Origin: a virus
Taxonomy: Duplodnaviria > Caudoviricetes
Reading direction: 5' to 3' (one strand)
IMG/VR virus record: IMGVR_UViG_3300028909_000001
DNA: 64,000 nucleotides
The translations under genes were made by a program, and so were the position numbers. Positions 1,919 to 34,146 of the stretch are shown in pieces (position 1 is the first letter of the stretch; each line of letters starts with the position of its first letter). The notes beneath the pieces are model-generated. The model ran no database searches, was not told where the DNA came from, and worked only from the letters and a program-made list of their open reading frames with translations.

Positions 1919-4258
1919 TTACTCAAATGATAACTGCTCTTCCAGTTCTTCTGCAAATTTATGGGTCCCAAATCCTTTGGCATATGCAAGCCCTGGTATT
2001 GGAGATGGTCCCTCCAAACTACTAGAAGCTCCAGTATTGACAGCCTTTATTAATCTACGTTCCAGATTAGTACTATATAAGGTATGCATCCAGTCATGTT
2101 CATGTGCTGGGACATCTAATAATCTTTGCATTTCTGGTTCAAATTCAGGTTTTGTCTCATTTACCGTAACATAATCGATATTATGTTTCTTCAACTCATT
2201 AATTACAGTACTGGTGATTCTAGTTCCTATTGTATAGTGTAATTCAGGTATTTCCAAGTATAAACCTTGAGCCATATCAGTTCTGACCTTCTTACTATTA
2301 GTTCTAGGAGAATAGGCTTTCTCCAGTGTATGATAATTTACTATACTGTCTGGCAAGTTATTCCCTAAGCCTTTAGGATTGGTTATTTTAACATGAGTAA
2401 TTAAACCTTTACTTATAATATCAAAATTACGTTTATTTATTCCACCTAATTGACTAGTTTCAAATGTATCTTTAATAGCTTTGGAGAAATACCTTCTACC
2501 TTCTCCAATACCTTTATGCTTTGTTATTTTAGCTGGATTAGGTATACCATCACTTAACACATCACCTTCTTCAACTAGCTGGCCTGATTTAACCAATACT
2601 TTCAAATCTGGGTGTACATAATATTCTTCAAGTTTTCCATTATCATGCTTAATAACTATATAATGACCTCCTTGTGGTGCTACTCTTACTTCTTCTATCT
2701 TACCATCAGAGTCAGCTATTGGGGCTTCATGGACAAATGAATCCGGGATATTAAATAATTGATTGATGTATTTAAAGCCACCAAATTGATTAGAACCAGT
2801 TGCACTACCTCCCTTGTGCTTACTATTATGTACTATTAAGCCATTCGCTAATACAAATAAAGCATCTTTACTATCTACTTCAATATCCCAACATTGTATT
2901 AATCCTAGATACTCTGGTTTATTGTATAGTACTACCCAATAATCATTTGTAGTAACTACATCTATAGTTTCATCAATATCTTTTAGAGGCATTTCTGTTA
3001 ATACATTACTACATTCCAGGGTTTCACAAAGTATCTTATGATTCTCTGTAGCATATAGTTCAATTACTTTATCTTTATTATCTATAAATATATATTTATT
3101 AACAGGTTGTAATCCTTGATTGAATAACCTTAGAACTTTGACTGGAGAGGTTTGACCAGCGTTATCAGAGCCAAGCACCATATCTCCGACCTTTATATCT
3201 TGAATAGCTTTAATAGAATAATCTGCCATTCTTACTAGTGTTCCTTCAGCTAAACAGTTTAACGCCCCTTGTGCTACTGGTTCTGCTGCTGAAGTACCGG
3301 CAACAACTCCAATAAAAGAATTAAGTTCAGACAAGCCTTTACCTCTGATACCCACACATAATTGACAAAGAGCACTAGAAGTTCCATCATGACTAGCTTC
3401 ACAAGTTATAGGATTTCTAACTACAATCTCTTCTATGCCTTTGCTTTTTAGAATACCCAGCATACTAGAGGTAACTTCATTATTATAGTGATATTTGTCT
3501 ATAGGATGAGCTAAGAACGAACCGATGTAATCATTATCATTTGTTTTTACAGGTATTCCATTATGAGTACCACAATCATGTTCTTCTATCACCATTGTCA
3601 TGTTTGCTCTAGCTAATTGCTTGCCTAAAAACCCACCTTCTGCCACTGATAATTTTGTGGCCGCGCTGGCTTGTCTCGCACCAAAAGTATGTGCCAAATA
3701 TTGGGGCAAGGTTAATCCTTCAGCAAAAGATCTATCAATAATAAAATCAGTTAGAATACCGCCTTTATTATCGTTAACGGCTACTGGGGAGAAAATAGTT
3801 TGACGATATTGTTCGGGACTCCCTCTCGCTCCGGCTTTAACTACCTTGGCTAGAGTCTTATTATCTTTAAGGCCTTCTTCTATTATTTCCTTATTTGCAG
3901 TGTCAGAAAACTTGTTGAGCAAATTTGTTAGTTCATCATCTTCTTTCTTTTTAGGTAACTTTTTATCCTTTATGCTCTTAATCTCTTTATTGAGTTCTTT
4001 AAATCTCTCATCTTTAAAGGAGGGTGGAAGCAAGTCACCTAGTCTGACAGTACTACCCAACCTAGTAGCTGATTCAAACCCAAGTCTAGTTAAATCTGAT
4101 ACTACTTTCTTATAACTATCTTCATTATGCTCTGCTAAATTAGAGAAGAAAGCACCTATATTCTTCTTATCCAAATCTTTGCTTTCTATAAATGAATGAG
4201 AGTTAGCAGGAGAGTAATGCTTAAGCAGGATTTTGCCTACTGTTGTTACCTCAGACAT
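1919..4258 (-). CDS. rpoC: Phage RNA polymerase beta' C-terminal subunit with mini-intein
   Basis: TTVGK, AGARGS, SFAEGL, bridge helix GARQASAATKLSVAEGGFLGKQL, HDCGT...CQLCVG zinc site, trigger loop AAEPVAQGALN|SKHKGG. Confidence 0.93.
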   Translation of the reverse strand: MSEVTTVGKILLKHYSPANSHSFIESKDLDKKNIGAFFSNLAEHNEDSYKKVVSDLTRLGFESATRLGSTVRLGDLLPPSFKDERFKELNKEIKSIKDKKLPKKKEDDELTNLLNKFSDTANKEIIEEGLKDNKTLAKVVKAGARGSPEQYRQTIFSPVAVNDNKGGILTDFIIDRSFAEGLTLPQYLAHTFGARQASAATKLSVAEGGFLGKQLARANMTMVIEEHDCGTHNGIPVKTNDNDYIGSFLAHPIDKYHYNNEVTSSMLGILKSKGIEEIVVRNPITCEASHDGTSSALCQLCVGIRGKGLSELNSFIGVVAGTSAAEPVAQGALNCLAEGTLVRMADYSIKAIQDIKVGDMVLGSDNAGQTSPVKVLRLFNQGLQPVNKYIFIDNKDKVIELYATENHKILCETLECSNVLTEMPLKDIDETIDVVTTNDYWVVLYNKPEYLGLIQCWDIEVDSKDALFVLANGLIVHNSKHKGGSATGSNQFGGFKYINQLFNIPDSFVHEAPIADSDGKIEEVRVAPQGGHYIVIKHDNGKLEEYYVHPDLKVLVKSGQLVEEGDVLSDGIPNPAKITKHKGIGEGRRYFSKAIKDTFETSQLGGINKRNFDIISKGLITHVKITNPKGLGNNLPDSIVNYHTLEKAYSPRTNSKKVRTDMAQGLYLEIPELHYTIGTRITSTVINELKKHNIDYVTVNETKPEFEPEMQRLLDVPAHEHDWMHTLYSTNLERRLIKAVNTGASSSLEGPSPIPGLAYAKGFGTHKFAEELEEQLSFE
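2825..3256 (-). mobile_element. Mini-intein (144 aa, no endonuclease) in the beta' trigger loop
   Basis: Starts CLAEGTLV, has block B ATENHKIL, ends LIVHN followed by Ser+1. Confidence 0.93.
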
Positions 4259-4934: not shown

Positions 4935-5636
4935 TTAGATTTCTGGATTTCCGCCTGGTTCATCTTCACCATTATCATATTCACTATCTTCTGATTTTCT
5001 ATGCTTGCTATATAGATAAGCCCCTAAACCACCTAAACCTGCAGCGCCCAAACCTAATTCATAAGGAACTTTGTTGTTACTAATATGATTGGATAATACT
5101 TCAAATAAAGATTGGGGAGAAATATCATTCTTATGTAAAGCTTGTTCTGCTCCAGTTATAGCTCCATGTATACTAGGTTTAATAGTAGTATTAGCATTTA
5201 CATTATTAAATACATTACCTAATCCTTGACCAGCATAATGAGCACCTATGCCTCCACCTACTCCAAGTCCGGCAGCAGTACCTAGTCCCATGTCACCAAC
5301 TGATTTACTTTTGAATAGTTTACTCAATACGGATTTGGCATCAATATTAGCTGGTTCTGGTTTACTATTTAATTTAAGTTGATTTCCTCCAAAGCCATCT
5401 AATTTAATCTTATTACTTATAGAACCTAGATTAAGTTTACTAGATGGAAAGTCAGAACTAGAAGGAGCTTTAGGTATAGCTAAATTAGAAACAGCTGCCT
5501 CTGGTATAGAAGCACCAGTAGCCTCAGTAGCACCAGTAACTTCAGGTTTAAGTACATTAGCCAATTCTTCAAATGACTTAATAGGATTTGCAGAAGCTTT
5601 AATAAATCCGTTAATAAATGCGTTATTTAGATTCAT
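4935..5636 (-). CDS. FINGFIKA-leader protein with glycine zippers
   Basis: N-terminus MNLNNAFINGFIKASA; GLGTAAGLGVGGGIG and LGLGAAGLGGLG. Confidence 0.75.
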   Translation of the reverse strand: MNLNNAFINGFIKASANPIKSFEELANVLKPEVTGATEATGASIPEAAVSNLAIPKAPSSSDFPSSKLNLGSISNKIKLDGFGGNQLKLNSKPEPANIDAKSVLSKLFKSKSVGDMGLGTAAGLGVGGGIGAHYAGQGLGNVFNNVNANTTIKPSIHGAITGAEQALHKNDISPQSLFEVLSNHISNNKVPYELGLGAAGLGGLGAYLYSKHRKSEDSEYDNGEDEPGGNPEI

Positions 5637-6286
5637 ATACCTAGACCTTGTTGGGGTTGGGCTGATTGTGCTGGTTGGGTTGGTTGTGCAGGATTACTAC
5701 CATCCATCGGCCCACTACCATAAATACCTCCACCCATCATACCTTGTTGTTGCTGTTGTTGCATCATTTGTTCTTGTTGTTGCTTCTGCTGTTCTTCTCT
5801 CTGCTTCTGTTGCTCTTCCCTATGCATCTTAGCACGTTCATATTGATGCTTTTCTTTTAATTGTTCAGTCTTCAAATGACTCTGTGTTGCCTTCCCGCCA
5901 CTATGTAAATCTAATAGATCAGCTACACTTAATGTAACTGTAGTATCTTTTAACCCTCTAGACTGTTGTTTTGGGGCTAAATCATCACTTTGTCCTGGTT
6001 GTGGCTGACCTCCCTGACTCAGATCTTGCTGAGGTTGACCCTGGCCTTCTTGTTGCATTCCTTGGCCTTGACCCATTTGTTGAGCTAATTGAGCCATCTG
6101 TTGTGGGTCTGGTTGTTGACCTGATCCACCTTGACTTGGTTGTGGAGATTGTGAAGATTGTGGAGGTTGAGGTTGTTGCCCAGGTAAACCTCCTTGTTGT
6201 TGAGCAGCAGTACTATTAGGTGATGGTATAAATGCTTGTTTATGCATCATACTACCTATTTCTTCTAAGATTTGTCTGTAAGTCAT
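5633..6286 (-). CDS. Gln/Gly/Pro-rich low-complexity K-x-A protein
   Basis: HKQAF near N-terminus; long Q-rich tracts around a short ordered core. Confidence 0.75.
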   Translation of the reverse strand: MTYRQILEEIGSMMHKQAFIPSPNSTAAQQQGGLPGQQPQPPQSSQSPQPSQGGSGQQPDPQQMAQLAQQMGQGQGMQQEGQGQPQQDLSQGGQPQPGQSDDLAPKQQSRGLKDTTVTLSVADLLDLHSGGKATQSHLKTEQLKEKHQYERAKMHREEQQKQREEQQKQQQEQMMQQQQQQGMMGGGIYGSGPMDGSNPAQPTQPAQSAQPQQGLGI

Positions 6287-6349
6287 ATTAAAATTGGTAT
6301 TATCTCTATTTCAAAGTTCTATCTATTATGGAGATTGATGGTAGTTATA

Positions 6350-6571
6350 TTAATGATACTTTTGTAATAGTTTCTCACTTTCCCAGGCCACAGCTTCATC
6401 AATAATAAATTCTTCCAAGGATTTTTTAACATTAGCTAATCTACCTTGGTCTATTCTACCCTTTAATTTACTTTTAGGCAAATCAATATCTCTTAGTTGA
6501 GTTAGAGCTTCTATCAACTTATCTAATTTCTGTTGTTCGTTCAATACTAACCATACATCTCTAGTTATCAT
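6350..6571 (-). CDS. Hypothetical protein
   Basis: ATG-started 73-aa ORF filling the operon gap. Confidence 0.6.
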   Translation of the reverse strand: MITRDVWLVLNEQQKLDKLIEALTQLRDIDLPKSKLKGRIDQGRLANVKKSLEEFIIDEAVAWESEKLLQKYH

Positions 6572-6587
6572 ATAAGGTCTTCTTCTT

Positions 6588-8309
6588 TCATTTCTCTATT
6601 TCTATGTTGTCTCCTGGCTCTAAATCACCTCTGTTATATGCAGCAACTACTTCTTGTTCAGTTTTATATTTTTTAGGAGTGTTATGTTTGTTTTCTGTAC
6701 TTAGTCCATAAAGGCCCAAAGCTGCTTCATTACTAGGGATTAATACAGGTTGAAAAGATTTAACAGATAATAAATTTTTGCTAGGCATCATTTTAGCTAT
6801 AACTTCTTTACGTGCTTCTTCAGTGCCTGGAATATGGACATTAAGTTGGTCTCCGTCGGAATTTTTTGTATATCCTCCTATAGTTAAGAAACTTCCGTAG
6901 TTTGGTATTTCCAAATCGTAAGCAGTATTAGATTGTAACTTAGTTACTCTTTTAACTTTCTTCCATTTTAAACTACCATTATACACCTTACCTAAATATG
7001 ATATCCATTGTTCATTATTCTTTAACTCAACTAGAAGTATTTCAATTATTTCTTTTAAAGTGCTTTTACGAAATCTATCTGTTTTAAATTCCTGGCTTAA
7101 TCTATATTTTAAATTATAAAGTTCCTTATTCTTTTGTAATTTATATTTATTATTAATAGCTGTAATTATATTTTTTTTAACAGTTTCTGAAGGAAGTGGT
7201 ACTAAGTCATTAAAGTTATCACCTATACCTGTTATATCTTTTAAGCTATTCTCTAATTTTTCCTTCTTCAACTCATGACTTATTCTAAATTTTGTTCTTT
7301 CAACTAACTTTTTAAATGTCCCAGTATGAAATCTGAAGGAGAAATTATCTTTACTACTCAGCCTAGATGCCCCTTTATATACTCCATAATTTAAATTTAA
7401 CCGTTTACTCATATATCTTAAACCGTTAATTAAATGAATTGATGATGTGCAGATACTTATATTTATAACTGTTTTATTAGAAGAACTGACACTTACTGTT
7501 CCATCAGTTGAGATTAACCCATCTAATATACCTAGTAGATGTTCTTCAGGACCGTTTAAACTAAAAGTAGGTATTTTCTTATTAAAAGCTCCACTCCCTA
7601 TCTGCTCTTTTAACCACTTATTAAACCAGGCACAAGAAGCTCTAGTTTTACCTCTAGAAGTAAATTGCCCCATCATATTCTCACTAACTCTATCTATTTC
7701 TTTAACTCCATTTTCATAAGGAAGATATTCACTATTACATAAATCAGCAAATACTTTTCTATTCATTAATTTTTCTTTGGTAGAACCGGCTAAGAAAAGT
7801 TGATTAGCATTATCTACCCAACCATCACCTAAAACCATTCCTATAAAAAGTCCGGTTTTATAATTAAGTTGCAAGTTAAATGAATTTTTAACAAATCCTT
7901 TTCCTCGTATTCCTTTCATTCCTCTAGTACCCATCATACCTTCAGCTAATACACTTGATTGAATATTGGGTGCTATAGTTGTAACATCACTAGGACAATA
8001 CCTACCTACTGCCTCTTCGGTATCAACTTCTTCAATACCACTATCAGTATAAGCTAATAAACTATGATCTTTGGCTGCAAATATAAAATCCCCATCTATA
8101 AATTGTACCAAATATAAAGGTACATTAGGATGAATCGAGAATGTCTTTGGATTTACCCAATCTACTTCACCAGTTATAAGGTTTAATGATTTTACTTCTA
8201 CATTACTAGGTACATCATAAAGGATATTACCATTTATAGTAGTAGTGGCTGAATTTTCTATTCTAGGGAAATCTGAAATAGGTACTAGTGTATATTTATA
8301 ATTAATCAT
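6588..8309 (-). CDS. rpoC: C-terminal split-intein half with LAGLIDADG endonuclease, fused to beta' middle segment (SDGDQLNVHIP...)
   Basis: Block B AAKDHSLL, LAGLIDADG motifs GMVLGDGW and DGLISTDGT, intein end GGYTKN|S; C-extein matches the DGDQMAVHVP region of bacterial beta'. Confidence 0.9.
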   Translation of the reverse strand: MINYKYTLVPISDFPRIENSATTTINGNILYDVPSNVEVKSLNLITGEVDWVNPKTFSIHPNVPLYLVQFIDGDFIFAAKDHSLLAYTDSGIEEVDTEEAVGRYCPSDVTTIAPNIQSSVLAEGMMGTRGMKGIRGKGFVKNSFNLQLNYKTGLFIGMVLGDGWVDNANQLFLAGSTKEKLMNRKVFADLCNSEYLPYENGVKEIDRVSENMMGQFTSRGKTRASCAWFNKWLKEQIGSGAFNKKIPTFSLNGPEEHLLGILDGLISTDGTVSVSSSNKTVINISICTSSIHLINGLRYMSKRLNLNYGVYKGASRLSSKDNFSFRFHTGTFKKLVERTKFRISHELKKEKLENSLKDITGIGDNFNDLVPLPSETVKKNIITAINNKYKLQKNKELYNLKYRLSQEFKTDRFRKSTLKEIIEILLVELKNNEQWISYLGKVYNGSLKWKKVKRVTKLQSNTAYDLEIPNYGSFLTIGGYTKNSDGDQLNVHIPGTEEARKEVIAKMMPSKNLLSVKSFQPVLIPSNEAALGLYGLSTENKHNTPKKYKTEQEVVAAYNRGDLEPGDNIEIEK

Positions 8310-8382
8310 ATAGACACAATACGGTGACTAGTTGAACTTGTCAATTAATTTTCTCTCTATAAATAATATAATCTACAATACT
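6861..8382 (-). mobile_element. Split intein in the RNAP catalytic motif (IntN 13 aa at 8344-8382; IntC at 6861-8309)
   Basis: Joining the exteins gives YGAD+SDGDQ; IntN SIVDYIIYREKIN is followed by TGA. Confidence 0.85.
8316..8344 (-). promoter_or_regulatory. sigma70-type promoter for a leaderless IntC transcript
   Basis: TTGACA(8344-8339)-N17-TATTGT(8321-8316)-N6-ATG(8309). Confidence 0.75.
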
Positions 8383-11094
8383 ATCCGCACCATACCCCTT
8401 AAATACTAATGGATTCATTTTAATAGTTTTATCTTTAGAATTTGGATTAGCAATTAAATTAAACCCTAATAGATTATATTTATGCCAGGCTGGATCTCGC
8501 GTTATAATACCAGGTCTTACTGCCATCTCTTCCTTTAATGCCATAACTGCTAATGGACTATGTTTTTTAACATAATCAACCGCACTAATAGCTGGTACAC
8601 CCTTCATAACCAACCTTCTAATAACAAAAGGTTTATATATCTGCCACAGCATATCTTGAGGTACACTAGCCTGGTCTACATCCAATCTAGTATCTGGAGT
8701 TAACACAGCTCTTCCCACCAAATCCAGACTCTTATTAACCACCTTACTCTGAAACATTGTACTTTTAGCCGTTCCACCCTTTAATCCAAACATAGTAGCT
8801 AATATACCTTTAACATTCTTATCCTGGTGTTTCTTATTAATTGGATCACCCAAACCAAAGGCAGCTTTTACTCCATCATATTCATTTTGTTTTAATTTCC
8901 TAACTACTTCGTCCGGCACATTCTCAGTATTTTTAAGTGCATTGTTATTTAGTATGAGGTCTTTATATAGATTATTAACATCACTAGTTAATACTACATC
9001 ACCCATCTTACTAGCAGGTCTGTATTGGGCTGGTAGAATAGGTACTTTATGCAACATCAAATCTTTAGGATGTAACTTATGTTCTTTTAGTGTAGTGAGA
9101 AATTCTAACAATTTAACGGCATCATCTCTTCTAGTCTTCTTCTCACTACCTATATACTTCTTCATTTCTTCTATCTTCTTATCCAGATCTATATTATTAA
9201 GGGCTTTTTCCATTTCCCCATCCACTACCATATCATTAAACTTAAACTTGGTAACTCCTAACAACTTTCTGAGATAATCCTCACTAATAGGATTAGGTAT
9301 GGGATGATTAAGATTTATGTGATTAAACTTGTCACCTAATATGCCTATTATATTAGGATCAAATAGTCCGCCAGGTTCATGTATTAGTTCTTCTTGATGT
9401 GGCTTGAATAATGAAGGTTTCTTAATTTCACCATTACTCAAAGCAGTAGTATCCTTATCTGTTAAAGGTAGGATATTAAAGGTATTACCAACTCTATCTA
9501 CATTAATACCGGCAGCTTTTAAACTATCTATGAACTTGTTAAAGATGAATGGAACTTTAGGGCTGGGTGGGGTTTGGCCCAATTTAATAGCACGCCAGAA
9601 TTCATCATTCTGAGTACCTTTAACAGTACCTATATCCTCCAATACATGTCTGACATCATGACTTAGCAAAGCTGTAGTACCTAAATTTCCTATTCTCTTT
9701 GATGAACCACCTTCCACTGCTGACTTACTTGGTTGCCGGTCGAAACTGTATCCGGACCCCTGACTTCTAGTACTTAGTTTATCTTCACTAATATGAGTTA
9801 ACCTACTATAGAATAATGGACCTACAACTGCTTCAATATTTCTACCAGTAATTGGATCATATAGTTGTTCAGTATCATTTATATTATTCTTCTTTAATAC
9901 ATTAATTACATTCTTAATAGATGAATCCTTTCTAAACTGATCCATTTTAATAGTCTTACCAGTCTTCTCAGCTAATTTACCAAGGCCTAGAGTTATGGCT
10001 AAGGCTGGTGCAACTCTTGACGTGATGGACATGGAGTTAAGCATGATATCAACTGGCTTCCCATTAGGTAGTAGTGGAGCTTGTGAGTCTGATACAATCT
10101 TCGTTACACCCTTAGCTCCAAAGTAATTAGAAATCTTATCACCAGGTAATAGACTTCTTACCGTCTTGATATGTACTGTAATAAGTGGGCCATGTTTGGT
10201 TACATCCACTACTTCTCCATCATGTTCGTAGTCCCAGGCTTCTGAATTATCTTTGAATGCATGTTTTAATACTTTACTCAGCTTACCTAATGCCAAATCT
10301 GTACTCTTTAATGCTCTGGGTGAGTAAGCCAGGATTACCGGGTCTCCAGCTTTCAATCTAGACCCTACTATAACCACTCCATCTGAATCTATATTTTTAA
10401 TTTGATTATTCGTATATTTATTAGGAAATAGTGCTACAAATTTATCCTTGCCTGCCTCTACTCCAAATTTCTCTTCAATACTAAAATTGATCATTTGTTC
10501 TGCTGCCAACTTTTTAGCACCACTTTCAGTCACTGCAAAAGCATCCTCAAAGTTGTCTGAGCGGTACGGGATTATAGCAGTAGTAAGGTTAGTTCCCATC
10601 GCCATATTACCTTCTTTATCATTATAATTACTGTAAGCTATTACTTCATTAGTTTTAACTTTATCACCAACCTTCACTTTAGGGGTATGAGTAATAAAGC
10701 TTTTCCTGCCTAAATGAAAGTTATTATATAGTTGATAGGTAGACTTGGTTTTATCTGTATTATCTACTTTAATATGATTTTCAGTAACTTCAGTAACAGT
10801 ACCAGGTTTAGTTGCAGTTACAGATAAATAATGTTTACCATATAGTTCTTGAGTACTTTCTTTGTTAGTGTCATCTGAACTTTCTACTAACGGACGTTCA
10901 GGATTTACTAAAGGTATAGCTTGGAGAGAAGCCTTGGCTCCTAGTAACACACGCCCGCCGGAAACTGAATTTAGCCCAGTAATCATGTTAGTAGGTAAAG
11001 CAAATAAATCCCTACTCGAAGGCATGGATATATGATCTTCATTTAGTTTGTCCACCTTCTCAAAATTTCCCTTATTAAGTACAGTATAACTCAT
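8341..11094 (-). CDS. rpoB: RNA polymerase beta C-terminal / beta' N-terminal fusion ending in IntN
   Basis: Beta motifs RVLLGAKASLQAIPL, NFEDAFAV, GDKISNYFGAKG, RLTHISEDK; beta' motifs GGLFDPNIIG, VPILPAQYRP, SDVNNLY, TRDPAWHK, NPLVFKGYGAD; start moved to ATG 11094 (TATAAT-N6-ATG). Confidence 0.93.
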   Translation of the reverse strand: MSYTVLNKGNFEKVDKLNEDHISMPSSRDLFALPTNMITGLNSVSGGRVLLGAKASLQAIPLVNPERPLVESSDDTNKESTQELYGKHYLSVTATKPGTVTEVTENHIKVDNTDKTKSTYQLYNNFHLGRKSFITHTPKVKVGDKVKTNEVIAYSNYNDKEGNMAMGTNLTTAIIPYRSDNFEDAFAVTESGAKKLAAEQMINFSIEEKFGVEAGKDKFVALFPNKYTNNQIKNIDSDGVVIVGSRLKAGDPVILAYSPRALKSTDLALGKLSKVLKHAFKDNSEAWDYEHDGEVVDVTKHGPLITVHIKTVRSLLPGDKISNYFGAKGVTKIVSDSQAPLLPNGKPVDIMLNSMSITSRVAPALAITLGLGKLAEKTGKTIKMDQFRKDSSIKNVINVLKKNNINDTEQLYDPITGRNIEAVVGPLFYSRLTHISEDKLSTRSQGSGYSFDRQPSKSAVEGGSSKRIGNLGTTALLSHDVRHVLEDIGTVKGTQNDEFWRAIKLGQTPPSPKVPFIFNKFIDSLKAAGINVDRVGNTFNILPLTDKDTTALSNGEIKKPSLFKPHQEELIHEPGGLFDPNIIGILGDKFNHINLNHPIPNPISEDYLRKLLGVTKFKFNDMVVDGEMEKALNNIDLDKKIEEMKKYIGSEKKTRRDDAVKLLEFLTTLKEHKLHPKDLMLHKVPILPAQYRPASKMGDVVLTSDVNNLYKDLILNNNALKNTENVPDEVVRKLKQNEYDGVKAAFGLGDPINKKHQDKNVKGILATMFGLKGGTAKSTMFQSKVVNKSLDLVGRAVLTPDTRLDVDQASVPQDMLWQIYKPFVIRRLVMKGVPAISAVDYVKKHSPLAVMALKEEMAVRPGIITRDPAWHKYNLLGFNLIANPNSKDKTIKMNPLVFKGYGADSIVDYIIYREKIN

Positions 11095-11185
11095 ATTTTG
11101 ATTATATACTCTTATTATTGATTTCCACAACCTCAAACTTTAGTCTTTAATTAACCTGGAATATACATTAAACTAGGTTAGATTT

Positions 11186-11536
11186 ATGAAGAGTTGGATT
11201 ATTATTGTATTTAGCTTGATTAGTATTAGTATTGAAGCACAACAATTAAATAAAGTCTATCTAAATCACTTATTAGACGCTATTTATCTAGCTGAGGGTG
11301 GGGCTAATACTAAATATCCTTATGGAGTGATTGGAGATTTTAAAAAGAGTCCAAGAATTATAGCTGCCAATACTATAAAACATAATTACAATAACTGGTT
11401 AAATAGTAGTTCTAAAACAGATTTCTTAAGATATCTACAACAACACTATTGTCCTATAAATGCTAAAAATGACCCTAATCATTTAAATGATAACTGGTAT
11501 AAGAATGTATCTTTAATAATGAAACAGTATGAATAA
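11186..11536 (+). CDS. Secreted lysozyme-like / transglycosylase-like protein
   Basis: Signal-peptide-like N-terminus; AIYLAEGG...PYGV...HYCP...LNDNWYKNV pattern. Confidence 0.55.
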   Translation: MKSWIIIVFSLISISIEAQQLNKVYLNHLLDAIYLAEGGANTKYPYGVIGDFKKSPRIIAANTIKHNYNNWLNSSSKTDFLRYLQQHYCPINAKNDPNHLNDNWYKNVSLIMKQYE

Positions 11537-12206
11537 GTTAGATGCATTTATTAATGGTTTTATCAAGGCTGCTGGCCCACTCCCTCCACCTCCTCCACCT
11601 CCTACACCTCCTACACCTCCAAAAATTCCGATGATTTCATTACCACACAATGCTTATACTGTTGGTGGTCTCCCTCCAAATATGCATAATTTTGTTAATA
11701 AAGGTGGTAATACCCTTAATATAAATGCTCACGGTGGTCCTGATAGTGCTATTAATGGAGAATATGCATTTCAAAGTGATTCTAATAATTCTAAAAACTT
11801 GCTTTATAACAATGAACCACTAACTTATACTCCTCAAACATTGGCTAAACTTATTGGTCCAGCTACTAACAATATCAATAATATTTATACTACTGCTTGT
11901 AATGGTGGGGATTGCTCCAATACTAATGTGAGTCCAAACGAAGTGCTTAAAGGGTTTGCTACTCCAGCTATGTACCGTAAATTATTCCCTAATCTTACTA
12001 ACGTTGTTCAAATCCCTCCCAGGCATTATGGTCCATTAATTCCAAGTCAATTTAAGACTAATGAATACCCAGACGTAGTGAATATAATAAATAGAATTAT
12101 TAAAGATAGGAATCCTAATGATCCAATAACTACAAGCTTGCCTCATCAATATAATCTACAAGGTGGTACTAATTGGGTGGATAAAGGGACTTACTATAAT
12201 TACTGA
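11529..12206 (+). CDS. FINGFIKAA-leader protein with Pro linker and possible clan CD cysteine protease domain
   Basis: MNKLDAFINGFIKAAG, poly-Pro, LNINAHGG (H68) ... IYTTACN (C124). Confidence 0.6.
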   Translation: MNKLDAFINGFIKAAGPLPPPPPPPTPPTPPKIPMISLPHNAYTVGGLPPNMHNFVNKGGNTLNINAHGGPDSAINGEYAFQSDSNNSKNLLYNNEPLTYTPQTLAKLIGPATNNINNIYTTACNGGDCSNTNVSPNEVLKGFATPAMYRKLFPNLTNVVQIPPRHYGPLIPSQFKTNEYPDVVNIINRIIKDRNPNDPITTSLPHQYNLQGGTNWVDKGTYYNY

Positions 12207-12207
12207 T

Positions 12208-15063
12208 ATGACAGACCGACACAATGTATATGTAGTTGAATTGGATAAGGAGGTCTTAGCTAAAAAAAAGTTTTTAAAGTTGAATCCTAACTACAATCCA
12301 GAACTACCTCCACTTTATGTAGGAGAGACTGGTTTGAGTCCTGAAGCTAGATTCGAGAAACATAAAACTGGACTAAAAGCCAATATCTGGGTAAAGAATC
12401 ATGGGCTTAGACTTAGGCCTGAACATTATAAAGATTTAAATCCCATGCCATTTCATAAAGCTGAAAGAACCGAGGAATGGTTGGCAAAGAAGTTAAGGGC
12501 TGAGGGTTATCCAGTAGTAGGTGGGAATCCTAGAACCGTACCTTTGAAGAAGGAGGCTGGTGAAGAAGCGTTACAACCTCAACAAGCTAGAGTAATTAAG
12601 AAGATTCAAGATAAGAATACTTCAGGGTTAGTGCTTTATCATGGGATGGGTAGTGGAAAAGGATTGGTTATAGGCTCAAAGATATTAACACCTACAGGGT
12701 GGATAAATATAGAAGATATAAAACAAAACACAGAAGTGATTTCTGTTAATGGTGTGAAAGCTAATGTGACTGGAGTCTATCCTCAAGGGTATAAAGATGT
12801 GTATAAAATTACTTTTAGGGATGGTGCTACTATAGAATGTGATGATTCTCATTTATGGTTCACTCAATCTAGATGTGAACGTAAAAATTACGTTAAAAGC
12901 AAGGATCAATTTAAATATAGGTGGGTAGGTAAAGTCAGGAGTACAAGCGAAATTAAAGATACAGTATTATCTAATGATAATAGTTTAAATTATACTATTC
13001 CTATTGTGAAACCTATTCATTTTAAATATAGAAAACTTCCACTAGACCCGTATTTTGTTGGTTTGATTTTAGGAGATGGTAGTATTTGTGGAGGTGGCTG
13101 TGCGATAACAACAGCAGATGACGAAATTCTGCAATCAATTAAGTCTTTATTTCCAAATTTTACTCTTAAAAAATATTCTAAATATACTTATGGATTAGGT
13201 AAACCAAAAGGATATAACAGTTACATTGTTCAAGCATTTAAAGAATTAAAATTACAAGGTATGAATTGTTTTACAAAATTTATACCTGATATTTATATGT
13301 TTAACACAGTGAAATCTCGCATAGCATTATTACAAGGGTTAATGGATACTGATGGTACTGTAAGTAAAGATGGTATGGCTATAGTTTATGAGTCCGTCTC
13401 AAAACAGTTAGCAGATGGTGTGCAATTCCTTGTTGAATCACTAGGAGGTTTAGCAAAGATAACAACTAGAATTCCAACATATTCATATAAAGGAGAAAAA
13501 AAGAAAGGAGCTTTATGTTATAGGGTTTGGTTAAGTTTACCACCAAATATCAATCCATTTAGATTACACAGAAAAGCAATTCAAGTAATTCCTAAGACTA
13601 AATATAAACCAACTAGATATATAAAAAGTATAGAATATGTTGGAAAAAAAGAGACAATCTGTATTGCAATCGATGACCCTTCTCATCTATATATTACTGA
13701 ACATTGTATAGTTACGCACAATACACGCGAAAGTATTGAATCCTGGAAAGCATTAGGATTACCTAAGACTGATATCATTGTTCCAGCTTCATTAAAATCC
13801 AACTATCGTAAAGAGTTGCAGAGATGGTATGGCAATTCTAATCCTTCTAATATCAACTTAATTAGTCAACAAAGATTTGCTAATTCTAAGTTAAATACTC
13901 CAATATACAATACTGGTTTGCAGATAGTAGATGAAGCTCAAAAAGCTAAAAATAGTAATAGTGAATTATATCAAGCATTGGTTAAAACGAATCCAGCCAA
14001 GCGCCTTCTCCTTTCAGGAACTCCAATTCTAAATGATCCTACTGAATTAAGTAATCTTGTTAACTTAGTAGCAAAGAAACAAGTATTACCTAATAATTTA
14101 TCTGAGTTTAAAAAACAATATTTTAAACAGGAAGAAGTTAAACCTGGATTTTTTGGTAGATTAATGGGAGTTTCTCCAGGCATTCAATATAAGCTACAGA
14201 ATAAAGCTCAACTATCTAAGATTCTGGATAAGTATGTTGACTACTATAAACCTACTCAAGAAGGATATCCTACTGTGACGGAGCAAGAAGTTAATGTTCC
14301 TATGGGTGCTAAACAACAAGAGATATATGATACAATACTCGGAAAGACACCATTTTGGACACGTTATCGAATTAAACATAATTTACCTCCTGGACGTGGT
14401 GAATTAGAAGGTATGCGAGCATTTTTAAGTGGACCTAGACAAGTAAGCAATTCAACTGCTGGATTTACTAAAAATTTAAGAGACGTGGAATCCCCTAAAA
14501 TAGATGCAGCTTTTAAGTTTTTACAAATACAATTAAAACAAGATCCAAACTATAAAGCTCTAGTATATAGTAATTATCTTAATAATGGTCTTAGACCTTA
14601 TGAATCATTATTAAGAAAGAATAATATACCATTTGGAGAGTTTAGTGGAGCTGTAACACCTACTATAAGAGACCAGGCAGTTAAAGATTATAATGCTAAT
14701 AAATTAAGAGCATTATTAGTATCAGGAGCTGGGGCTGAAGGATTGGATTTGAAGGCTACAAATTTGACACAACTTTTGGAACCTTTTTGGAACCTTCCTA
14801 AAGAGAGACAAGTTATCGGAAGATCAGTACGTTTCCATAGTCATGATAGTTTGCCTCCAGAAAAGAGAAAGGTTTTAGTGCAACGTTATTTTGCCACACC
14901 AAAACCTAGTTTATTGGATAAACTTACATTCAATCCCAAACCTACTGGTACAGATTCATATATTAGAAATTCAATCAGTAAACCAAAAGATAATCTTAAT
15001 CAAGAAATAACTAATTTAATAGCCAAGAATCAAGAACCTAAATCTTGGCTTAACTACAATTAA
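12208..15063 (+). CDS. GIY-YIG-like domain fused to an SNF2/SF2 helicase with intein
   Basis: VYVVEL...LYVGETG; Walker A GMGSGK|T, DEAQ, LLLSGTP, GAEGLDL, QVIGRSVR; start moved to ATG 12208 (TATAAT-N7-ATG). Confidence 0.9.
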   Translation: MTDRHNVYVVELDKEVLAKKKFLKLNPNYNPELPPLYVGETGLSPEARFEKHKTGLKANIWVKNHGLRLRPEHYKDLNPMPFHKAERTEEWLAKKLRAEGYPVVGGNPRTVPLKKEAGEEALQPQQARVIKKIQDKNTSGLVLYHGMGSGKGLVIGSKILTPTGWINIEDIKQNTEVISVNGVKANVTGVYPQGYKDVYKITFRDGATIECDDSHLWFTQSRCERKNYVKSKDQFKYRWVGKVRSTSEIKDTVLSNDNSLNYTIPIVKPIHFKYRKLPLDPYFVGLILGDGSICGGGCAITTADDEILQSIKSLFPNFTLKKYSKYTYGLGKPKGYNSYIVQAFKELKLQGMNCFTKFIPDIYMFNTVKSRIALLQGLMDTDGTVSKDGMAIVYESVSKQLADGVQFLVESLGGLAKITTRIPTYSYKGEKKKGALCYRVWLSLPPNINPFRLHRKAIQVIPKTKYKPTRYIKSIEYVGKKETICIAIDDPSHLYITEHCIVTHNTRESIESWKALGLPKTDIIVPASLKSNYRKELQRWYGNSNPSNINLISQQRFANSKLNTPIYNTGLQIVDEAQKAKNSNSELYQALVKTNPAKRLLLSGTPILNDPTELSNLVNLVAKKQVLPNNLSEFKKQYFKQEEVKPGFFGRLMGVSPGIQYKLQNKAQLSKILDKYVDYYKPTQEGYPTVTEQEVNVPMGAKQQEIYDTILGKTPFWTRYRIKHNLPPGRGELEGMRAFLSGPRQVSNSTAGFTKNLRDVESPKIDAAFKFLQIQLKQDPNYKALVYSNYLNNGLRPYESLLRKNNIPFGEFSGAVTPTIRDQAVKDYNANKLRALLVSGAGAEGLDLKATNLTQLLEPFWNLPKERQVIGRSVRFHSHDSLPPEKRKVLVQRYFATPKPSLLDKLTFNPKPTGTDSYIRNSISKPKDNLNQEITNLIAKNQEPKSWLNYN
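12661..13722 (+). mobile_element. Class 3-like intein (354 aa) with LAGLIDADG endonuclease
   Basis: Starts GLVIGSKILTPTGW; DDSHLW, TICIAI and IVTHN|T give the WCT signature; GLILGDG and GLMDTDG motifs. Confidence 0.9.
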
Positions 15064-33214: not shown

Positions 33215-33499
33215 ATGTCGAACGAAACACAATTAGAACAGCAATTGAATGCTGAATGGAGAAAAACTATTAAAGATAATCTTGAAGAACTCAGGACTGG
33301 TCAAAAACAATTAGCTAAGGATATTACTGATATTAAGCTAAGTTGTGCTCAAGCAGATGAAGTAAAAAGTCTGAGAGAAAAGGTCGAAAAACTTGAATTA
33401 TCTAAAGCTAAAACTACTGGAGTATTGGTAGCCGTAAATGTGATATTAATTTTTGCGGGCTGGTGTATTCAGACTTTACTGCTTGTACATCATAGTTAA
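33215..33499 (+). CDS. Coiled-coil protein with C-terminal TM helix (holin/XhlA-like)
   Basis: Heptad-rich N-terminus and hydrophobic C-terminus. Confidence 0.55.
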   Translation: MSNETQLEQQLNAEWRKTIKDNLEELRTGQKQLAKDITDIKLSCAQADEVKSLREKVEKLELSKAKTTGVLVAVNVILIFAGWCIQTLLLVHHS

Positions 33500-34146
33500 G
33501 CAGGCCTTCTTCTTTCATTTCTTGGTAAGTTGAATTGTAGATATTTCTCATACTTTCTAGTCAGTCCAATTCTGTCTTCTAGAAAGCCTTGATAAATATA
33601 GTTACCGAATTTATAACCACCACAAATGCTAGGTATAACTATTCTAGAACCCTTATGTCCAGTTTTTTTATTAATCTCCCTCCCTATTCTATAATGAATC
33701 TCCATAGGTAATACTAATTTCTCAAAAGCAGACCAATCTTGAGTGTAGGGACCACAAATACTATAAGAACAATGACCATCTCTGGATATACAAAAACAAC
33801 CATCCCCATCACTGTAACCCCTCCACCAGTAATGAGTTAGGTTTTCAGGTATAATGCTTAATATTGTAGGAGCTTGATCTTTACTTCTATAATTGTAACT
33901 AATTAATTTAGTTGCTAATTCTACACTACCTTTTTGAAAACTCATTTGTAATTGCCCTGGTGGATTTGTTTTTTGTATATTTCTACGTATATTCCAATTC
34001 CAGGCTTTCATAAGTGTTGGTTCAATAATTACTGCATCAACTTGTTTTATAGCTATTTTAATTTTATTTTCTTTAGATATAGACCCGTCGGCCCAGATAA
34101 ATCCTAACGTATATGCTGTCTCTGCTGTTATATTAGTTAAATCCAT
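33496..34146 (-). mobile_element. Free-standing LAGLIDADG homing endonuclease
   Basis: AYTLGFIWADG and WWRGYSDGDG; start moved to ATG 34146 behind TTGACA-N17-TACTGT-N6. Confidence 0.85.

Follow-up and report, generated by a model that had tools for sequence, protein, structure and literature searches.

A probable atypically split LAGLIDADG intein with serine nucleophiles in the RNA polymerase catalytic loop of an uncultured peat jumbo phage

Few natural inteins are known to be atypically split, and their N-terminal fragments (IntN) comprise 15-37 aa (PMC13014065, PMC10189870). The record is held by PolB16 with an IntN of 15 aa, which is also the only natural cysteine-less example given (PMC13014065, PMC10189870). 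The PolB16 intein OarG from a sheep-gut metagenome employs serine as residue 1 and as residue +1 and possesses a C-terminal fragment (IntC) of 168 aa (Pasch et al. 2023, PMC10189870); the 15-aa IntN has been made synthetically (PMC10189870). The IntN of VidaL, AceL-TerL and GOS-TerL are given as 16, 25 and up to 37 aa, respectively (as cited in PMC13014065). Here we describe a locus within a stretch of 64,000 nucleotides (termed the window) from the IMG/VR virus record IMGVR_UViG_3300028909_000001 (Duplodnaviria; Caudoviricetes), where the catalytic loop of the RNA polymerase subunit beta' is interrupted by an intein-like element, which itself is broken after 13 residues. We assign a probability of roughly 0.8 to the view that this element is a genuine, maintained, atypically split Ser1/Ser+1 (cysteine-independent) LAGLIDADG maxi-intein. 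A preliminary description of the same DNA had called short natural N-fragments rare, which agrees with the few cases known; the length that it quoted, about 15-25 aa, is narrower than the published range.

The window is part of a 151-kb record with an estimated completeness of 69%. The record originates from peat metagenomes, the stretch is present in 14 DNA runs, and the element resides in an uncultured peat jumbo phage endowed with a multisubunit RNA polymerase. Two adjacent genes on the same strand are involved (Table 1). From the start used in databases (ATG 11094), the upstream gene codes for 917 aa including IntN, and according to the open reading frame (ORF) list and the sequence its product ends ...NPLVFKGYGAD-SIVDYIIYREKIN before the TGA stop. 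In the downstream protein, the intein ends with Asn483 and the C-extein begins with Ser484. In Pfam, this protein matches Intein_splicing from profile position 40 (E 2.7e-6), exceeds the threshold of LAGLIDADG_3 and covers the last part of Rpb1 domain 2. Two ORFs, a TGA stop, an out-of-frame gap of 31 nt and a new start, in a break that is kept in relatives, mark the element as naturally split, and an IntN of 13 aa (14 in relatives) together with an IntC match from profile position 40 marks the split as atypical. The hallmarks of class 1 inteins are present: a nucleophile at residue 1, the block B His (His82), the block F Asp (Asp465), a terminal Asn, Ser+1 and a HINT fold. IntC moreover contains the invariant His60, both LAGLIDADG motifs (Asp162 and Asp269) and the terminal pair Lys482-Asn483. 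The preliminary description had recognised the 13-residue fragment at the end of the upstream gene, the LAGLIDADG domain inside IntC, the Ser nucleophiles at positions 1 and +1 and the penultimate Lys (Lys482-Asn483/Ser484, the slash denoting the splice junction), all of which are borne out by the ORF list, the sequence and the Pfam matches.

Judged from the sequence, the intein interrupts the beta' Mg-binding loop after its first Asp, ahead of Ser-Asp-Gly-Asp. In a profile search of PDB sequences the C-extein matches solved beta' chains, including the NADFDGD region of E. coli beta' (455-516); this search did not match inteins, the likeness to which came from the fold search described below. 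The C-extein aligns with the final ~95 residues of intein-less homologues. About 100 such homologues of the upstream protein, ~990-1000 aa in length, read GAD[S/N]DGDQLN... in a single chain, and some of them read exactly GYGADSDGDQLNV. The two exteins add up to 904 + 90 = 994 aa, which fits the length of these homologues (990-998 aa). The earlier claim that the catalytic loop is divided, with one Asp on one chain and two on the other, holds, and intein-less homologues read GADSDGDQLNV. An Rfam scan over positions 5500-12000 yielded zero matches, as did a search of GenBank phage nucleotide sequences with the locus.

The same split occurs in two diverged relatives from other samples, P0002 (loci L002-L004) and P0003 (on the P0003/P0011 contig), the IntC of which share 57% and 55% identity with the window, and the N-exteins 74-77%. 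Their upstream genes (~917 aa) end with GFGAD/STIDYIVYREKLTS or GFGAD/SVIDHIIYREKLTS, including an IntN of 14 residues each, and are followed by a gap of 24 nt (L002, P0003 contig) and a downstream gene starting MNNYKYT or MNTYKYT. IntN residues 1-11 are conserved in the relatives (S-x-[VI]-D-[YH]-I-[IV]-Y-R-E-K), and the last 2-3 residues vary. A contiguous homologous intein occupies the same site in two further proteins. P0105 reads GAD/SILGVVKVYEQGEGKFVNIADVP...YQ/SDGD and is 37% identical to the window IntC protein over 580 aa, endonuclease included; P0196 reads NLD/SMLGEIF...YD/SDGD. The window IntN aligns with the start of both contiguous inteins. Residue 1 and the DFP anchor are separated by 27 residues in P0196 and by 13 + 15 = 28 residues in the window; hence, nothing is missing from the split intein. 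By alignment to P0196, the break falls into the turn between the first two strands, i.e., the first hairpin. In the intein of P0105 (L006, residues 908-1347), Asn replaces the block B His and the terminal residue is Gln (...YQ/SDGD); splicing of this intein may be slow or absent. No further relatives were found in three viral_contigs scans (with P0001, P0002 and P0003) and one metagenome_contigs scan (with alignment A1), and therefore, the promoter-like cassette discussed below is comparable in two lineages only.

Ser1, His60, Asp465, the terminal Asn and Ser+1 are retained in all three split lineages. In these lineages, as well as in the contiguous P0105, Ser1 follows GAD, and Ser is also found at intein residue 1 of P0196. 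Across 41 family members, His60 and Asp465 do not vary, and the conservation of Asp162 and Asp269 reaches at least 90%; the block B His82 appears in the context KDH or KNH. Comparing the window with L002, the proportions of nonsynonymous (pN) and synonymous (pS) differences amount to 0.25 vs 0.65 in HINT-N and to 0.31 vs 0.72 in the endonuclease domain. Synonymous sites are saturated and pN remains low, which points to purifying selection on both intein domains.

The AlphaFold2 prediction for the downstream protein, made from 41 aligned sequences, reaches a mean predicted local distance difference test (pLDDT) score of 85.5. Its best fold matches in the PDB are bifunctional maxi-inteins, namely TliVMA (E 1e-17), followed by PI-PfuI, PI-TkoII and PI-SceI (Foldseek, 1e-17 to 1e-9), and the endonuclease fold matches I-SceI, I-DmoI and PI-SceI domains. 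Taken together with the two motifs, the modelled domain looks like a monomeric LAGLIDADG endonuclease, which apparently is intact. The preliminary description had proposed to predict the IntN/IntC complex. A model made from the last 47 residues of the upstream protein and IntC residues 1-510 scores 0.84, as compared to 0.40 for the best of 3 controls, a mark that is reached by 51 of 78 solved complexes and by 2 of 108 mismatched pairs. The high score may in part come from the model's memory of, or likeness to, solved inteins. Contacts agree between runs to at least 70%, with a partner pLDDT of 44 or more. In this model, IntN residues 923-928 (YIIYRE) pair with IntC 4-11 and 36-40, and the interface also comes near block B (75-77), block F (454-464) and the C-junction (474-477, 481). 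The model supports the notion that IntN binds IntC as the missing strand.

These data suggest the following mechanism. Two polypeptides are encoded, beta/beta'N carrying the 13-residue IntN, and the 483-residue IntC carrying 90 beta' residues. The IntN strand would pair with IntC and thereby complete the first HINT beta-hairpin. Class 1 splicing would then proceed via oxyesters, with an acyl shift at Ser1, transfer to Ser+1 and cyclisation of Asn483. The ligated product of ~994 aa (~110 kDa) is expected to read GADSDGD, to contain the predicted junction peptide GYGADSDGDQLNVHIPGTEEAR and to be the sole form with a complete catalytic triad. For the IntC gene, a separate sigma70-like promoter in the spacer of 24-31 nt would probably drive transcription of a leaderless mRNA. 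Since the two halves are adjacent and the endonuclease looks intact, the split element may still home as a single DNA unit.

The putative promoter is part of a cassette, which the window shares with L002 (TTGACT-17 nt-TATATT-7 nt-ATG, the sole match in the 9.6-kb locus); the common geometry is TTGAC-N17-TAnnnT-N6-7-ATG. In L002 translation runs through the -35-like hexamer, which supplies the final IntN residues K-L-T-S, and in the window a 5-nt difference turns the TGA of the hexamer into the stop codon. The cassette thus encodes the end of IntN, which accounts for the variation of the last 2-3 residues next to 11 conserved ones. Genome-wide, the pattern TTGAC[AT]-N16-18-TAnnnT-N4-9-ATG is found at 9 sites (2.5 +/- 1.6 in shuffles, maximum 7). 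At eight of them, the ATG begins an ORF of 67 aa or longer, and one of these ORFs is a free-standing LAGLIDADG gene. The genes here lack Shine-Dalgarno sequences, and the nine sites represent a candidate promoter class for leaderless mRNAs. Contigs from the RNA libraries of two runs comprise one that ends at 8325 and one that starts at 8324, and a third contig bridges these positions; 8324/8325 is the 3' edge of a small hairpin after the stop and does not coincide with the predicted start at 8309. The two contig ends give a weak hint of an RNA end, in contigs only. A 7-bp direct repeat (ATTAATT) flanking the spacer was considered as a target-site duplication and rejected: it occurs only in the window and arises from the 5-nt difference to L002.

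Several observations weigh against a functional split intein of the kind outlined. Lys (Cys in P0003) takes the place of His at the penultimate position, block B has Ala or Gly for Thr, and His60 of the split clade follows an Ile or Val, in contrast to motif NX with its Arg or Lys (PMC10189870); a Lys precedes the His60 equivalent only in P0105. The Pfam Intein_splicing match scores 27.7 bits, which is below the curated cut-off of 35.8. Moreover, splicing is a prediction from sequence and models, and with 69% completeness the record leaves room for a second polymerase or for an intact copy elsewhere. As to the promoter, bare sigma70-like sites are not enriched in the genome (23 vs 21 in shuffles) or in a scan of the window (48 vs 69.5), and RNA contigs reach upstream of the predicted start. 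We regard the proposal that the IntC mRNA is leaderless and starts at its own promoter in the spacer as evenly balanced.

The non-canonical penultimate and block B residues and the incompleteness of the record would also fit a decayed relic that no longer splices, the chains of which assemble non-covalently or are non-functional, while another polymerase does the work. With its block B Asn and terminal Gln, the contiguous P0105 indicates in addition that some family members may be impaired. Yet, pN is far below pS in both intein domains at saturated synonymous sites, and His60, Asp465, Asn483, Ser1 and Ser+1 are kept in three split lineages. An insert of ~480 residues within the Mg-binding loop is furthermore hard to square with catalysis, and the record contains no other beta/beta' homologue, neither a further beta or beta' catalytic loop nor, as the preliminary description had suggested to verify, a second copy of the segment in 151 kb (69% complete). 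We therefore consider a relic unlikely. Even less probable is an artefact of sequencing or assembly, which would have introduced stop and gap into a contiguous intein. The source record indeed is assembled from metagenomes, but the break is common to independent assemblies of relatives from other samples, and besides the 14 DNA runs that hold the stretch, a 23.8-kb DNA contig and RNA-library contigs are identical to it. The DNA contig, from a peat run that may be the source sample, matches base for base across the junction, and an RNA-library contig spans 8275-8614 with zero differences and no joint. The junction, which the preliminary description had wished to see confirmed with reads, is thus unchanged across the break in both, and an artefact can practically be discounted.

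Translational recoding by a hop from AAT-TGA to the downstream ATT-AAT, by readthrough or by frameshifting would yield one precursor, which then splices in cis. In favour of recoding, the window has ATT AAT both ahead of the TGA and behind the ATG, as matched take-off and landing codons, and a small hairpin downstream of the stop, and in L002 the 24-nt gap keeps the frame. However, L002 lacks the codon match, and in the window the two genes are in different frames. The frame of the downstream gene has a TAG beyond the upstream TGA, which leaves no room for frameshifting. The hairpin folds no better than shuffles (z -0.70, +0.76) and is not conserved; it was dropped as a hairpin, terminator or take-off structure of the spacer altogether. 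A programmed bypass of the T4 gene 60 type was likewise rejected, given that the codon match is confined to the window and that the hairpin lacks both significance and conservation. In more distant split members, the genes are separated by 12 nt, including a Shine-Dalgarno sequence, or by 145 nt. In our view recoding is improbable, somewhat more so than decay, and the preferred reading remains a split intein that is assembled from two separately translated chains.

Table 1. Features of the split intein locus, the cassette sites and neighbouring intein-related genes in the window
Feature	Position	Strand	Basis or remarks
Upstream gene, RNA polymerase beta C-half fused to beta' N-half	8341..11136	minus	ORF list and sequence
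N-extein	8383..11136	minus	Pfam Rpb2_6, Rpb1_1, Rpb1_2; ends ...NPLVFKGYGAD
IntN, 13 codons, SIVDYIIYREKIN	8344..8382	minus	Ser1 codon 8380-8382
TGA stop of upstream gene	8341..8343	minus	overlaps -35-like hexamer TTGACA
Non-coding gap between the two genes, 31 nt	8310..8340	minus	sequence
Downstream gene, 573 aa	6588..8309	minus	N-terminus MINYKYTLVPISDFP; contains ...GGYTKN/SDGDQLNVHIP
IntC, 483 residues, remaining HINT domain and inserted endonuclease	6861..8309	minus	Pfam; alignments A1, A3; AlphaFold2
LAGLIDADG endonuclease domain in IntC, ~residues 150-445	6975..7862	minus	LAGLIDADG_3, 32.8 bits vs cut-off 22.5
C-extein, 90 residues, SDGDQLNVHIPGTEEARKEV...	6591..6860	minus	beta' catalytic loop and segment after it
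Promoter-like cassette	8307..8344	minus	TTGACA (8339-8344), 17 nt, TATTGT (8316-8321), 6 nt, ATG (8307-8309)
Cassette sites in window	8309, 15314, 34146, 41152, 48197		four more elsewhere in genome
beta' C-terminal gene (779 aa) with second intein, a contiguous mini-intein	1919-4258	minus	Hint/Hom_end_hint matches
SNF2-type helicase gene with LAGLIDADG intein	12163-15063	plus	LAGLIDADG_3, Hom_end at residues 374-458
Free-standing LAGLIDADG gene	33496-34146		

The split intein belongs to a wider family. When the IntC protein was used in an exhaustive search without a profile, more than 1000 matches were obtained. The ~150 best ones are LAGLIDADG inteins homologous to that of the window; they interrupt the catalytic loop of beta' or beta-beta' proteins, which mostly are giant (1300-3500 aa; P0125-P0271). 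Most of these inteins sit four residues further on (NADFDGD/.../T-x-N-x-HVP). Many members have Gln, Glu, Asp, Ala, Leu, Lys, Tyr, Asn or Gly at intein residue 1 and Thr at +1, and thus lack an N-terminal nucleophile. Stand-alone ORFs of the IntC type recur in the family. In two cases the split is at the same structural position: L011 comprises a 20-aa IntN, a 145-nt gap and a TTGACA-type site, and L012 an IntN of ~38 aa and a 12-nt gap with GGAG. P0202 lies 31 nt downstream of a beta-beta' gene. P0262 (L007:393-2612), an IntC-like ORF of 739 aa with a GTG start (MYNKGLINIADFP...) on a 3.4-kb contig, was not counted as a split member, as it follows a ribosomal protein L1 gene at a distance of 9 nt and has no beta'-like C-extein. 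Most contiguous members carry a Met (often MP or MS) 19-28 residues ahead of the DFP anchor, which is preceded by Glu/Gly/Lys/Asp-rich residues and coincides with the start of the IntC ORF in split members; in some contiguous members Leu or Val takes its place. This Met could serve as an internal start, have remained from a re-fusion or play a structural role. A limited literature search retrieved no reports on inteins at the beta' catalytic-loop site; this large, recurrently split family is apparently undescribed.

Further intein-related genes are present in the window. In the gene for the C-terminal part of beta', the mini-intein is bordered by ...ALN/CLAEGT...LIVHN/SKHKGG, and the homologue of this gene in L002 (634 aa) seemingly is devoid of it. 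Altogether, three inteins and a free-standing LAGLIDADG gene are located inside 35 kb.

If spliced as predicted, the element would place an obligatory protein-ligation step within the Mg-binding loop of a phage multisubunit RNA polymerase. The further proposals of the preliminary description, that trans-splicing gates polymerase activity and that the element could be a useful ligation tool, remain hypotheses. Short IntN fragments are wanted for semisynthetic protein labelling under oxidising conditions, and the element adds a shorter natural IntN, three natural sequence variants and a contiguous relative for comparison. A more speculative idea, which we put forward with considerable reserve, is that the split represents a recurrent, selected state, where the cassette generates a separate leaderless IntC-beta'mid message, completion of the active site is timed, the unit is still mobile and an 11-residue tag suffices. 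In this scenario, a stop/promoter/start cassette of 24-31 nt would turn completion of the polymerase active site into a post-translational step, mobility would follow from the intact endonuclease and the adjacent halves, and the 11 conserved IntN residues would constitute the shortest natural cysteine-independent splicing tag.

Among known systems, fractured genes (Dassa et al. 2009, PMC2677866) resemble the locus in that a split intein disrupts an essential gene of phage type, with both halves on the same strand, and in that the ORF with the endonuclease comes after a short non-coding spacer, which carries expression signals and measures 27-51 nt in fractured genes and 24-31 nt at the present locus. 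However, fractured genes are broken at the canonical site, with an IntN of ~100 aa and a free-standing endonuclease ORF between the halves; the preliminary description had likewise stated that the endonuclease usually is a separate ORF in such genes, in agreement with PMC2677866. Here, the break occurs after residue 13, the endonuclease is in frame within IntC, the gap lacks an ORF, and the free-standing endonuclease ORF that characterises fractured genes is absent. An earlier case of a homing endonuclease within a long C-fragment was not found in a limited search of the literature. TliVMA (7qss), PI-PfuI (1dq3), PI-TkoII (2cw7) and PI-SceI adopt the same two-domain fold as the modelled IntC; yet, they are contiguous, depend on Cys1 and share 8-15% identity, whereas here the first strand comes from another polypeptide.

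VidaL, AceL-TerL and GOS-TerL (as cited in PMC13014065) also combine a short IntN with a long IntC and are of phage or metagenomic origin, and VidaL is split directly after the first strands as well, but these are cysteine-dependent mini-inteins in other host genes with no endonuclease reported in IntC. Engineered splits of the S11 type (M86 DnaB, 11-aa IntN; cited in PMC13014065) are broken after ~11 residues too, and the site is therefore known to be permissive; in contrast to the phage element, M86 DnaB is artificial, cysteine-dependent and laboratory-evolved. PolB16, compared here by its published description, shares the natural atypical split near the N-terminus, Ser1/Ser+1 oxyester chemistry and a conserved His upstream of block B. 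The two differ in the host protein (RNA polymerase beta' here, PolB there), in the residue before this His (Ile/Val here, Arg/Lys there), in IntC (483 aa with LAGLIDADG here, 168 aa without it in PolB16) and in IntN, which here comprises 13-14 aa, 11 of them conserved. Two neighbouring genes with a promoter-like spacer and an insertion site within the RNA polymerase Mg-binding loop further set the phage element apart. The fragment would be the shortest natural IntN known, in a rare but described class.

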